Shown here: piece by piece, positions 14,154 through 20,000 of the stretch | Position numbering within the stretch: position 1 is the stretch's first letter | Layout of the letters: each line of letters starts with the position of its first letter | Origin: Chthonomonadaceae bacterium | GTDB taxonomy: Bacteria > Armatimonadota > Chthonomonadetes > Chthonomonadales > Chthonomonadaceae | Direction: 5' to 3' | DNA: 20,000 nt | Assembly (NCBI GenBank): GCA_035650735.1 | Contig: DASRGZ010000206.1 | Span: 45,799 to 65,798, forward strand | The notes under the pieces: generated by a model | Databases searched by the model: none | The model's input: only the letters and a program-made list of their open reading frames with translations | Told to the model about the DNA's origin: nothing | Position numbers and translations under genes: made by a program

Positions 14154-14622
14154 ATGACTGCCGAACTCAACAAACTCAAGCCCTCCCTCTGCGCAACGCG
14201 GCGTCCGGAAGTGACAGAAGCCCTCCTTGCGGACATAACGCAGCGTATTGTGGAGGCGTTTCACCCGCATAAGGTCATCCTGTTCGGCTCCTATATCTCT
14301 CAAAGAGAGCCTCCCGAACCTTTTACGCCCGTTTCACCCGCATAAGGTCATCCTGTTCGGCTCCTATGCCTACGGCACGCCGCATAAGGATAGTGACGTA
14401 GACCTGTTCGTTATCATGGACTCCGACGAGTCAACCCACGCTCGCATTGTGAAAGTGACAAAGGTGGCGAAAGTGCCGTTCCTATCGATGGATATTATCG
14501 TGCGGACATCCAAAGAGGTTCAGGAGCGCCTGGCAATAGGCGATTTTTTCGTGATTGAAATTCTGGAAAAGGGTAGGGTTCTGTACGACCGTGACGCTAC
14601 TATTCTGCTAGCTCGCCCTTAA
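14154..14622 (+). pseudogene. Minimal nucleotidyltransferase (MNT, antitoxin-like) disrupted by a 73-bp insertion/duplication
   Basis: Removing one repeat copy plus the insert (73 bp) restores a 131 aa ORF: ..ITQRIVEAFHPHKVILFGSYAYGTPHKDSDVDLFVI..MDIIVRT..EILEKGRVLY (GS..DxD motif). Confidence 0.88.
14257..14367 (+). repeat. Perfect direct repeat (38 bp; 37 bp from GTTTC) flanking a unique 35-36 bp insert, a CRISPR-like unit inside the MNT gene
   Basis: CGTTTCACCCGCATAAGGTCATCCTGTTCGGCTCCTAT at 14257-14294 and 14330-14367, separated by ATCTCTCAAAGAGAGCCTCCCGAACCTTTTACGCC. Confidence 0.92.
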
Positions 14623-15488: not shown

Positions 15489-16127
15489 TCAATCTCCGTC
15501 CCGGTATCTCGCGCTAAGGATGCCCGGCCAGATGGTCGTCTTCAATTTGCTCCGCCACTCCTGCTGGGTGACCTTTGTCCCCGGCGTGCTGCCCTCGCCA
15601 TAGGTGAGCGTATCCAGAAACGCCAGCACGTCGGTAAGCCGTCCCTCGATCAAGTTCACCCCGGTGGCACGAGAGGGAGCCTGATTGTAGTAGTGGAACT
15701 CGTGGATGACTCTATCAATCGCCAGCATCTTCTCACGCGGCGAACGCGCCCGCTCAAACCGCTGCACGAACGCCTGAAATATCTCCACCGCCCCGCCGGG
15801 GTTGAGCTGCCGGCGTTTGTAGCTCTTCTGGTACTCATGCCAGGTCAGACTCCACGCGCACTCCGGGCATTGCAGTACCTCGTCCCGTCCCCCTTTGCGC
15901 AGGATGATGCTGACCTTGCCATCATGGGCGCAGCGCGGGCATTTCACCCGGCCTTTCCGGGCTTCGGCGATGGTCAGGATGGCCTGACAGCGCAGGTAGA
16001 GCGCATACCCGACATCTTCCACAAGCTCCTCATCCAGCAGTCCCCTGGCATCGCTCTCGTAGAGACGGCGCAGCCTGTCCTTGCGTACTCGTGGCGGCCA
16101 GCGTATCTCGGCCCTTTCCTCTTCCAT
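15489..16127 (-). CDS. Hypothetical protein with two CxxC motifs (Zn ribbon)
   Basis: 212 aa ORF with an AAGGAGAG RBS; contains VKCPRC and LQCPEC, otherwise helical. Confidence 0.75.
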   Translation of the reverse strand: MEEERAEIRWPPRVRKDRLRRLYESDARGLLDEELVEDVGYALYLRCQAILTIAEARKGRVKCPRCAHDGKVSIILRKGGRDEVLQCPECAWSLTWHEYQKSYKRRQLNPGGAVEIFQAFVQRFERARSPREKMLAIDRVIHEFHYYNQAPSRATGVNLIEGRLTDVLAFLDTLTYGEGSTPGTKVTQQEWRSKLKTTIWPGILSARYRDGD

Positions 16128-16173
16128 AGCCTCTCTCCTTCCTGAAGAGGAAGACAGCTTTCACCGGGCACAA

Positions 16174-16268
16174 GTTGCATCGGACGGGAGCGCATTTGCG
16201 ACTCGCTGTATTCGAAGGCAAAGCTGTGGTAGATCGGCAGTTGCATAGGACGGGAGCGCATTTGCGAC
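16174..16268. CRISPR. CRISPR-like mini-array: two 29-bp repeats and one 37-bp spacer
   Basis: GTTGCATCGGACGGGAGCGCATTTGCGAC (16174-16202) and GTTGCATAGGACGGGAGCGCATTTGCGAC (16240-16268) differ at 1 position; the spacer is 16203-16239. No third copy at +/-66 bp. Confidence 0.55.
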
Positions 16269-16290
16269 CGCCCGCGATTTCTGCTACAAT
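16262..16290 (+). promoter_or_regulatory. Sigma70-type promoter TTGCGA-N17-TACAAT with extended -10 TG
   Basis: TTGCGA at 16262-16267 (inside repeat 2), TG at 16282-16283, TACAAT at 16285-16290; 30 bp upstream of ATG 16321. Confidence 0.6.
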
Positions 16291-16320
16291 GGAGACGACC
16301 CCATTTCCTGTAAAGAAGCC

Positions 16321-17052
16321 ATGTACAACGTTTACGATTCCTTCCGCAACGTGCGTCTGGTCAAGCCGGACGACCCGGACTATATCGCCTTTATGCGCCG
16401 CATGGCCGATAAGCGCCCATCGCGAGGCGGACCGCGCGCGGCGGGCGAGTATCTGGGCGGCATGGTGGAGCAGGCCGTCCGACACTGGCTGGGCGGCTAC
16501 GTCCCACTTCAGGAGGAACGCATTCTCTCCTGGGAGCAGCGGCTACGCAACGGGCGGCACGCCACCCTCTACCGAGAACTCGACGCCGTATGGACGATTG
16601 ACCACGAATCGCTCTGCCTCTACGAGATGAAGCTGACCACGCCGGAGAACATGGAGCGCGGCGTCGGCCTGCGCCAGCTCGATACGGCAGCGGAGACGCT
16701 ATTTACCTCGAAGCGTTACCGGTACGTTTTGGAGCGGCTGGTCTACGTTGCCGAAGAGCCGATCCCCGTGCTGGACGGTCTGCCTGCGCTGGCCCCCGAT
16801 GATGAGTACGAGGAGCTTGGCGTCGTCTGGGTCCCGCCGCAGGCGGTGGAGACAGCCGCGAAGGAGCTTGGCCTGGAATTGCCGGAGGACTGGCTGAAGC
16901 CGGAGGCGCGCGAAGGCTTTGTGGAGGACCCGGAGCGAGAAGAATGGCGGCAATATGCCGACACTATGGCCCGCGAGCAAACAGAGGAGGAACCCCCCTC
17001 CGGGCCGTTGGCCGACGCTCTGCGCCGCGCCCTGAAGCAAGAGGAGCCTTAA
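16321..17052 (+). CDS. Hypothetical protein with a putative PD-(D/E)XK restriction-endonuclease-like fold and an acidic C-terminal tail
   Basis: Motif order: helix with E (GGMVEQAVRHWL), then RELDAVW, then LYEMKLT, then GLRQL, which matches E..D..ExK..Q. Fold inferred from motifs only. Confidence 0.65.
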   Translation: MYNVYDSFRNVRLVKPDDPDYIAFMRRMADKRPSRGGPRAAGEYLGGMVEQAVRHWLGGYVPLQEERILSWEQRLRNGRHATLYRELDAVWTIDHESLCLYEMKLTTPENMERGVGLRQLDTAAETLFTSKRYRYVLERLVYVAEEPIPVLDGLPALAPDDEYEELGVVWVPPQAVETAAKELGLELPEDWLKPEAREGFVEDPEREEWRQYADTMAREQTEEEPPSGPLADALRRALKQEEP

Positions 17053-17054
17053 AC

Positions 17055-17106
17055 AAAAAAATGCCATCGGAGGTGCTCTGGCACGCAATAACCCGCCTCC
17101 GATGGC
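17055..17106 (-). terminator. Rho-independent terminator oriented on the minus strand (may also act on the plus strand)
   Basis: 11-bp perfect stem GCCATCGGAGG (17063-17073) / CCTCCGATGGC (17096-17106), with an A7 run at 17055-17061 that is a U-tract on the minus strand. Confidence 0.7.
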
Positions 17107-17243
17107 GCTCTTCCCGAGGTTGAAATACGCGCTGCGTATTCCCGGTCTACACAGAAGAGAAAATAACCTAATCGAGCTGCTGTATCCTATGACAACACGC
17201 TCCCGAGAAGGTTACAAATTTATTGGAGAATTCTGCAGGCAGA

Positions 17244-18470
17244 ATGCAAGAGCAGGGGATAGGCGGGGCGATGGGGAGTCCGGAAAGGCAAACCGGACGC
17301 GCCTGGGCGGAGATCGATCTAGGGGCGGTGCGCGCCAATGTCACCGCCCTGCGCGCCTTTTGCGGGCCGCAGACGCAGTTGATGGCGGTCGTCAAGGCCG
17401 ATGCCTATGGGCATGGCCTGGCGCCGGTAGCGCAGGCGGCGGTGGTGGCGGGTGCGGATTGGCTCGGCGTGGCGACGGTGGCAGAGGGCATGGCGCTGCG
17501 CGCCGTCGGCCTGGAAGCGCCCATTGCCCTGCTCTGCCCGCCGGCGCCCGACGAGGCCGAGGCCGTTATTGCGCACCGGCTGACGGCGATGGTCGGCGAT
17601 CTTACCACTCTAGAAGCACTGGCGGGCGCGGCCTGCCCTTTTATCCGGCACGGCAACGCGCCCGCGATCCATCTGGAGATAGATACCGGTATGGGACGCG
17701 CCGGGGTTCTGCCGGAAGCGGCGCTCTCCCTCTGGCGCGCGGCCCTACAGGCGGGACTGCGCGTTACCGGACTAGCTACCCACTTTGCCGACGCGGACGG
17801 CCCGGACAGCACCTTTACGCAAAGCCAGGTCCTCGCCTTCCAACGCACCCGCGCTGCCTTAGAAGAGGCCGGGGCGCGTTTTGAAGTTATTCACCTCAGC
17901 AACAGCGCGGCGACCCTGCGCTTCCCGGAAGCGCGCGGCAATCTTATCCGTCCTGGCCTGCTGCTCTACGGCATCCTCCCGCCCGTTCCTGCCCCTGCCT
18001 ATGACGTCGCCTCGGCGAACACGGCGGAGTGGCCTGCCGTGCAGCCCGTCTTGACGCTGAAGGCGCGTGTGGCGACGGTGCGCGCCTTGCCCGCCGGGCA
18101 CCCCATCAGCTATGGTGTCAGCCACCGTTTAAAACGTCCAAGTACGGTCGCCACCGTGCTCATCGGCTATGGCGATGGCTATCCGCGCCGCCTCTCCAAT
18201 CAGGGCCATATGCTGCTGCGCGGACGGCGCGCGCCCATTCTCGGGCGCGTCTGCATGGATCAGACGGTGGTGGACGTGACCGACATTCCCGGCGTCGTGC
18301 CCGGCGAGGAGGTGGCCTGTATTGGTGCGCAGGGCGCGGAACGTATTACGGTGGAGGAGATCGCCGCTCTCCTGGACACCACCGAGCACGAGATCACCAC
18401 CTGCCTGACCGCCCGCATCCCCCGCCTTTATCCTTCCGGTCCTGACGACGACTCGCGCTCGTTGGGATGA
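17244..18470 (+). CDS. alr: Alanine racemase
   Basis: AWAEIDLGA, MAVVKADAYGHG (PLP lysine), HLEIDTGMGRAG, THFADAD, HLSNSAA, IRPGLLLYG, ISYG, IGYGDGY, GRVCMDQ. Start at 17244 or 17271. Confidence 0.96.
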   Translation: MQEQGIGGAMGSPERQTGRAWAEIDLGAVRANVTALRAFCGPQTQLMAVVKADAYGHGLAPVAQAAVVAGADWLGVATVAEGMALRAVGLEAPIALLCPPAPDEAEAVIAHRLTAMVGDLTTLEALAGAACPFIRHGNAPAIHLEIDTGMGRAGVLPEAALSLWRAALQAGLRVTGLATHFADADGPDSTFTQSQVLAFQRTRAALEEAGARFEVIHLSNSAATLRFPEARGNLIRPGLLLYGILPPVPAPAYDVASANTAEWPAVQPVLTLKARVATVRALPAGHPISYGVSHRLKRPSTVATVLIGYGDGYPRRLSNQGHMLLRGRRAPILGRVCMDQTVVDVTDIPGVVPGEEVACIGAQGAERITVEEIAALLDTTEHEITTCLTARIPRLYPSGPDDDSRSLG

Positions 18471-19641: not shown

Positions 19642-19866
19642 TCGTAATACCTCCTCATTAGTTCCTGAGATTTTGAAAGCGTTGCTAGAATCTGGGGTTG
19701 AGGAGCAAAGGGGAAGAAGGCATCCTGGCATTCGCCCTGCATCATTCCTCGGAGCGTCTCCGTCCGGAGAGACACTAAAAAGCCAAATGGGGCGGGTTAG
19801 CCCCCTTATGACCTTTTCTATTCTAAATCGGTCCTTGCCCGCGCAGGTGTCGCCAGGCGGAGGGCT

Positions 19867-20000
19867 GTGGCAAGGCGGAGGCAGGGGCCCTAACCCTGCC
19901 GACGGCCAGTATTCGCAACCCTTCCACCTTGATGTTGATGTCGCAAGGCGGAGGCAGAGGCCGTAACCCTGCCGACCCTGGCAGTCCGTTGCAGGCCCGA
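19867..20000. CRISPR. Edge of a probable CRISPR array (37-bp repeats, 36-bp spacer), probably continuing beyond the window
   Basis: GTGGCAAGGCGGAGGCAGGGGCCCTAACCCTGCCGAC (19867-19903) and GTCGCAAGGCGGAGGCAGAGGCCGTAACCCTGCCGAC (19940-19976) differ at 3 positions; both have an internal hairpin GGCAG(G/A)G..CCCTGCC. Unique spacer at 19904-19939; a second spacer starts at 19977. Confidence 0.72.

Follow-up and report, generated by a model that had tools for sequence, protein, structure and literature searches.

A repeat-flanked insert upstream of a predicted PD-(D/E)XK nuclease gene is probably a scar of off-target CRISPR spacer integration

Introduction

What is a CRISPR-like unit of two repeats and one spacer doing directly upstream of a gene predicted to encode a PD-(D/E)XK nuclease? 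The question was raised by a 20,000-nt window from the genome of a soil bacterium of the Chthonomonadaceae, for which an earlier note had left three readings open: that the unit supplies a guide RNA for, or a regulator of, the neighbouring protein, that it is an orphan mini-array used in trans by the Cas machinery of the host, or that it is an ectopic integration scar. Here we examine the unit, the gene beside it, the genome-wide population of similar units and the resident CRISPR-Cas locus. The results suggest that the unit is very probably a fixed, neutral scar of off-target spacer integration, and that the conserved gene next to it, for which a PD-(D/E)XK nuclease is predicted, is unrelated.

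Results

The unit is a 30-bp duplication around a spacer-sized insert

The unit had been described as two 29-bp repeats with one mismatch and a 37-bp spacer. The repeats and the mismatch were borne out, as a single position distinguishes the copy at 16174-16202 from that at 16240-16268, and their starts are 66 bases apart. The base preceding each 29-mer is also identical, however, and the unit is therefore better read as a duplicated 30-bp target (16173..16202 and 16239..16268, forward strand) flanking a 36-nt insert without assigned strand (16203..16238; 37 nt if the repeat is counted as 29 bp). Copy 1, with its 29-bp core at 16174-16202, is host DNA and, read in crRNA orientation, agrees with the repeat of the resident type I-B array at 17/29; the -35 box predicted for the downstream gene lies in the terminal bases of copy 2. 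The self-complementarity reported for the repeat ends is present but modest (fold z -1.4 and -2.3). The unit does lie in the gap between two divergent genes, although it occupies 96 of the 193 intergenic bases rather than filling the gap. Rfam and ARAGORN gave no match within the window.

No third copy of the repeat was found within 6 mismatches in the 6.52-Mb genome, so the longer arrays of this repeat that the earlier note had suggested looking for did not appear. Units of the same geometry number 136 in this genome, compared to 2 when the gap is set to a control range of 50-62 nt, and together with the lack of a third copy this argues that the repeat pair did not arise by chance. An exact search of a metagenome collection with a 21-mer of the repeat returned one locus, identical to the window; with this single locus and no third genomic copy, we rejected a canonical array repeat family.

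Assembled contigs from six runs (X1, X5 and X6; X2, X3 and X4) span the unit with identical letters; five of these six carry a flag that marks them as a possible source of the same DNA. A metagenome locus (L042) is identical to the window over 3087 nt. Since all of these agree with the window, misassembly was dismissed. A single-copy (empty) allele was not found in seven runs, of which X7 does not reach the unit, or in relatives; every covering contig has the filled allele and no relative is close enough for an empty-site comparison. The joints listed for the run contigs include none that skips 66 bases. Because no empty allele of the site was found, we infer the direction of the event, an insertion, from the class of units to which this one belongs.

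A predicted sigma-70 promoter (16262..16290, forward strand) with its -35 box at 16262, a spacing of 17 nt and an extended -10 ending at 16290 is the only promoter-like site within 15900-17300, and none was found upstream of the unit. A similar extended -10 context is found upstream of four repeat-less orthologues of the downstream gene. Given the position of the -35 box at the end of copy 2 and of the -10 box beyond it, the unit would lie upstream of the predicted transcript: it overlaps the -35 box only, and the rest of it is upstream of the predicted transcription start. The gene-proximal copy leaves the predicted -35/-10 promoter whole, which suggests that the insertion is neutral.

The downstream gene encodes a conserved, predicted PD-(D/E)XK nuclease

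The downstream gene, P0001 (16321..17052, forward strand), encodes a stand-alone protein of 243 aa with a predicted PD-(D/E)XK fold. The motif order reported from the sequence alone (E50, E86-L-D88, E102-M-K104, Q119) is present, and 57 diverse P0001 sequences are invariant at E50, E86, D88, E102, K104 and Q119 and in no other column. The structure model (pLDDT 86) was matched best by Foldseek to the nuclease domains of Card1 and Can2, which are CRISPR ancillary proteins, at an E of 6e-3 that is below significance; none of the matches was at E <= 0.001. McrC and NucS topped the structural matches (VIA), both at Z 6.8 (rmsd 4.0/123 and 3.2/98). The PD-(D/E)XK fold runs through most of these matches, all of which count as moderate evidence only with Z under 8, and no single one is prominent enough to mark the nearest nuclease family. 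Foldseek, structure comparison and invariant residues thus agree with the PD-(D/E)XK assignment made earlier, supporting the prediction of a restriction-endonuclease-like core with conserved E...D...(D/E)xK residues.

Searches of Pfam and NCBIfam gave no family match for P0001, and none of 57 family members matched a PADLOC model. There were 141 homologues at E <= 0.001, the named ones being hypothetical proteins of Chthonomonadaceae, and a profile search reached 190 representatives; the look-alike clusters are mostly from Chloroflexota where the phylum is known. The gene is present in 35 of 36 other Chthonomonadaceae genomes, nearly always once, and in 0/24 other genomes of the order, and alr (alanine racemase) lies downstream of it in 13 of 30 loci. 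This distribution within the family and the recurrent alr neighbour together form a core-gene pattern. Along with the PADLOC result they also counter an anti-phage defence effector, a role that we rejected. P0001 would instead be a housekeeping DNA endonuclease of repair or recombination that acts independently of RNA.

If the unit served P0001, its homologues might be expected to carry upstream repeats, and this was the first means of refutation that the earlier note had named for a guide or regulator of the nuclease. No upstream repeat was present within 260 bases at the loci of 29 other genomes (0/29) or in a second set of P0001 loci (0/8) whose genomes are partly shared with the 29. The sole other repeat among the loci examined was a low-complexity stretch. 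The model and the neighbourhood clusters revealed no CARF, RNA-binding or cas partner of P0001. These results speak against the guide or regulator proposal.

The divergent gene on the other side of the unit, P0002 (15489..16127, reverse strand), encodes a Zn-ribbon-like protein of 212 aa with two CxxC pairs, for which every Pfam match was under the cut-off. It is patchily distributed (2/41 other family genomes), never adjoins P0001, and its other loci have no repeats (0/2). Since homologous P0001 and P0002 loci lack repeats and the two genes are not adjacent elsewhere, the pairing of the unit with P0001 is particular to this genome, and both genes are probably bystanders.

Units of the same geometry are numerous in this genome

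A genome-wide scan for short-range direct repeats with a period of 55-85 returned 259 pairs. Of these, 123 occupy one locus apiece and have a repeat of their own, and the remaining 136 belong to multi-copy families, including 79 from the true array. Strict units, defined by copies of 27-40 bp, a gap of 30-42 nt and <=2 mismatches with the array excluded, account for the 136 units given above; with a longer seed the count was 133, falling to 120 distinct inserts once one 14-copy family had been collapsed. For statistics we used 97 single-locus units, from which I-E-like repeats and coding tandem repeats had been removed. Three size classes hold 94 of the 97, with copy plus insert sizes of 28-29+32-33 (7 units), 30-31+36-38 (62 units, class B) and 36-38+34-38 (25 units, class C). 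Mostly coding DNA holds 12 of the 97 units, compared to 80% of random sites under a simple coding model made for the analysis. This deficit suggests either that gene-breaking events were purged or that intergenic DNA was preferred.

Such units are scarce in relatives. Samples from six other genomes of the family, totalling 1.45 Mb, contained 3 strict units, of which 2 are of low complexity, where ~30 were predicted at the density of this genome; a sample of a same-genus genome had 2 strict units in 0.29 Mb. Candidate single scars of the same geometry in relatives are located at L086:16694 (G012), L071:1291 (G020), and L109:8942 and L110:907 (both G001).

The window itself holds further repeat features. 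A class C scar at 14257..14367 (forward strand; 38-bp duplication, 35-nt insert, period 73) interrupts the reading frame of a nucleotidyltransferase-domain gene. Another period-73 unit, at 19866-19976, lies within a REP-like repeat, and its identical insert recurs in 14 copies, often at contig ends, which suggests that the scar was carried or amplified by the repeat or by a mobile element. At 1560-2775, 29-bp inverted repeats flank two ORFs, which by their appearance we take to be an IS630-type element.

Elsewhere in the genome, three copies of a host-derived 29-30 bp repeat enclose two different inserts (G000:C224:43547-43709), which would be a second acquisition at the same ectopic site. Orphan type I-E-like mini-arrays were also seen (G000:C109:6231-6382, C126:9900-10041, C127:3615 and C19:53152), and for one of their spacers there is a match in host DNA on C91, bordered on one side by AAG; no I-E cas1 was found in the genome that carries them.

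Class B targets resemble the repeat and leader of type I-B systems

The unit lies on contig C206, and the only cas1 and cas2 matches of the genome are on contig C93, in line with the earlier observation that the window has no cas gene. On contig C93, type I-B genes that include cas4, cas1b and cas2 are accompanied by a partial III-A module and an 80-repeat array (G000:C93:2502-7721). The array has a 29-bp repeat followed by a variable base and a period of mostly 65-67, to which the unit period of 66 (30 + 36) is comparable; the I-B repeats of relatives are 30 bp long. Arrays adjacent to cas1 in relatives within the family have periods of 61, 64-70 and 70-78, which are the same three geometries as the unit classes.

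Unsupervised alignment of the 62 class B targets gave the pattern A12 C13.. T16 G17 G18 T19 T20, which is the centre of the resident repeat in register, with a total information of 8.4 compared to 4.2-4.6 in six controls and with CC just beyond one end. The mean identity of these targets to the resident repeat was 11.9/29, compared to 10.3 +/- 0.23 for controls and 10.6 for flanking DNA. The unit at 16173-16268 was the highest of the 62 at 17/29, a value reached by 0 of 6200 control draws, and 625 sites in the genome score 17-20/29. CC at flank positions +2,+3 was found in 19 of the 26 units of exactly 30 bp against a background of 0.16, for a motif first spotted in the same data, and the present unit is among the seven lacking CC at the expected register. 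All five readable leaders of related I-B systems have CC, beginning GCC or CCC after the 30-bp repeat; the resident leader begins GACA, not GCC or CCC. An earlier system may have been the author of class B, because the resident repeat is 29 bp long and the mode of the class is 30, the length found in relatives.

Among 180 candidates, nine single-locus inserts matched host DNA elsewhere at 97-100% over 31-39 nt, and their sources are ordinary genes or intergenic DNA. Eight of the nine have CCG or CTG within one base of either end, compared to a background of 0.29 for this motif, which was defined post hoc. For two unit inserts there is an end-to-end overlap with an array spacer, of 17 and 13 nt respectively; the reversed control gave 0. 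Overlapping spacers yielded two readings only of the resident-array PAM. Polarity was inconsistent, in that the CC side agreed with the orientation of the central motif in 5/10 units and the PAM side with the aligned orientation in 3/7. Four of the nine host-derived inserts stem from a single 43.5-kb contig of ordinary genes (G000:C15), possibly an acquisition hotspot.

The target motif of class C was weak (10.5, compared to 8.3-9.3 in controls) and showed no likeness to the I-B repeat, and the genome, which is 97.6% complete, yielded no Cas1 that would go with the 61-period or the 72-75-period class. Taken together, the ~120 units of the same shape, the bias towards the I-B repeat and leader, the host-derived inserts and the repeat-less homologous loci favour the proposal of an ectopic integration scar.

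Away from the array, about nine near-perfect copies of the resident I-B repeat (22-28/29) occur singly or in pairs on contigs C3, C17, C19, C89, C121, C152, C162 and C166 of G000, and the copy on C166 is ~10 bases from a class C scar. At L041:1736-6559, between cas4 and cas1 of the I-B locus, lies the partial type III-A module, with a Cas10 that matches only profile positions 231-753, Csm2-4 and a ring-nuclease-like gene.

The insert has no detectable source or target

The earlier note had also proposed searching the spacer against host and viral databases, and this yielded neither a source nor a target. The best match in the genome itself was 25/37. A scan of 67 further genomes of the order that allowed <=3 mismatches gave no source, and neither did phage and plasmid records, where the best E was 0.1. 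In viral contigs three exact sub-patterns gave 0, 15 and 12 matches with a best extension of 27/37, and a peptide search was uninformative. The best seed match of the insert in the cas locus covered 8 positions, within the null of 7-10 from 30 other inserts, and promoters near the unit matched at most 5 positions. Genome-wide, there was no seed match flanked by CCG or CTG in the crRNA-sense orientation. The unit repeat retains 5 of the 8 handle bases of the resident repeat and its central hairpin differs. With a likeness of 17/29 and no upstream promoter, the unit thus offers no support for use in trans as an orphan array.

Features shared with relatives do not account for the abundance of units

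We looked for features that might set this genome apart. A type I-B Cas1 (L041:551-1729) has an acidic insertion of ~65 residues that shows up as a split match in about ten genomes of the family. The insertion was rejected as a sufficient cause, for it is shared by these genomes, which have few scars where sampled: four of them (G008, G012, G018 and G031; 1.13 Mb) contained 3 strict units, 2 of low complexity. A search for HU/IHF (PF00216) succeeded in only 1 of the 68 genomes of the order, and not in this one, compared to 9 of 14 control genomes; the order may use a different nucleoid protein. HU raises the integration fidelity of a type III-A system in vitro, according to the accessible part of PMC13769266. 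Because HU/IHF went undetected in 67 of 68 genomes and the sampled relatives with Cas1 but no HU have few scars, its absence is at most permissive. The resident array, with its shortened repeat and its altered leader, offers a lead on why this genome has so many units.

Discussion

Our results point to the following sequence of events. Taking a stretch of 30 bp near the promoter for its own repeat, a type I-B Cas1-Cas2 integrase would have inserted a 36-nt DNA fragment there and duplicated the target. The promoter-proximal copy would have stayed intact, and the insertion was probably neutral. We infer the enzyme, the direction (insertion here, not loss elsewhere) and the neutrality from the observations above.

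The unit may instead have been born as a scar, or from a decayed solitary repeat, and now work as a one-spacer array, which would be transcribed, cut by the resident Cas6 and used in trans by the I-B Cascade for defence or as a repressor. It has the highest likeness to the resident repeat in class B, the genome encodes an I-B effector set and holds the solitary near-perfect repeat copies described above, and degenerate mini-arrays repress cas promoters in type I-B systems, as the available text of 10.1101/2023.03.10.532045 reports. However, 625 sites in the genome score 17-20/29 in any case, the handle and hairpin depart from those of the resident repeat, the cas locus is on a separate contig, the sole promoter-like site starts transcription downstream of the unit, and the seed matches at the cas locus and nearby promoters are within the null or shorter. 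We therefore consider a working array quite unlikely. A guide or regulator RNA for P0001, which would make a new RNA-linked nuclease system, could draw on the predicted fold with its six invariant residues and on the sub-significant resemblance to Card1 and Can2, but the repeat-less loci in 29 other genomes largely refute it, and the core-gene pattern, the PADLOC result and the missing CARF, RNA-binding or cas partners leave it very improbable.

It is likewise hard to believe that the units come from a process unrelated to CRISPR, such as an unknown integrase, a repair-linked templated insertion or REP-associated micro-elements, and have CRISPR-like sizes by coincidence. REP-like repeats abound in the genome, a family of 14 copies has a period of 73, two of the size classes lack a corresponding Cas1 in the assembly and class C has no clear motif. 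Against this stand the target bias of class B, which fits the I-B repeat and leader, the PAM-like flanks of host-derived inserts and the two inserts that overlap array spacers. Off-target spacer integration remains our preferred reading. A more speculative extension of it, which we regard as improbable, is that one Cas1-Cas2 system after another has mutated the genome by insertion throughout its length in a lineage lacking HU/IHF, the best repeat mimics, with this unit at their head, being newborn arrays that already feed guides to the I-B Cascade.

These findings mean that the proposed RNA-guided nuclease can be set aside, and that single-spacer mini-arrays next to genes need a genome-wide control before they are called guides. 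Off-target integration is usually deemed rare or a matter of the laboratory, yet the ectopic spacer-like inserts of this genome (~120) outnumber the 79 spacers of its main array. The scars would record what the type I-B integrase reads, namely the repeat centre, the leader CC, a 30-bp ruler and a CCG/CTG PAM, and they point to adaptation systems no longer in the assembly. They also make testable the rate at which Cas1-Cas2 mutates its host and the birth of arrays by this route. Such integration has been described in laboratory E. coli and in vitro, and no natural record of comparable size was found in the literature searched, which covered few subscription papers.

P0001 is, separately, a modest find, an unnamed predicted nuclease conserved across a family. 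With the PD-(D/E)XK superfamily (McrC, NucS/EndoMS, the Cas4-like SSO0001 and Card1/Can2) it shares the predicted alpha/beta core and the E..D..ExK..Q residues, but it matches no Pfam, NCBIfam or PADLOC family, stands alone and is nearly single-copy in one bacterial family.

Regulatory mini-arrays of the CreR/CreA type lie within cas loci, are conserved and, in type I-B, target the cas6 promoter with a PAM, as described in the accessible parts of 10.1101/2023.03.03.530964 and 10.1101/2023.03.10.532045. The unit is like them in having two degenerate repeats, one spacer and a resemblance to a type I-B repeat. We rejected this identity, however, since the unit lies outside the cas locus, is unconserved at related loci and finds no target with both seed and PAM at a cas or neighbouring promoter. 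Three origins have been proposed for arrays distant from cas genes, and off-target acquisition is among them (Shmakov et al. 2020, as excerpted in PMC13142298). Unlike the isolated or orphan arrays of the text available there, the present units have unrelated, host-derived repeats and almost all have one spacer, and a search by repeat similarity would miss them.

The closest parallels are in studies of the integrase itself. Off-target integration by the type I-E system of E. coli gives neo-CRISPR loci (Nivala, Shipman and Church 2018, via 10.1101/148544 and PMC6698737), and as outlined in these sources the events resemble the present units in combining a spacer-sized insert with a repeat-length duplication of chromosomal DNA away from the array. 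For Pyrococcus furiosus Cas1-Cas2, the accessible text of PMC6698737 describes non-CRISPR integration sites of 30 bp that are repeat-like at the borders and centre, with C enriched on the leader side. That work, as presented there, was done in vitro on plasmids with an archaeal integrase, whereas the present record is chromosomal and comes from a bacterium.
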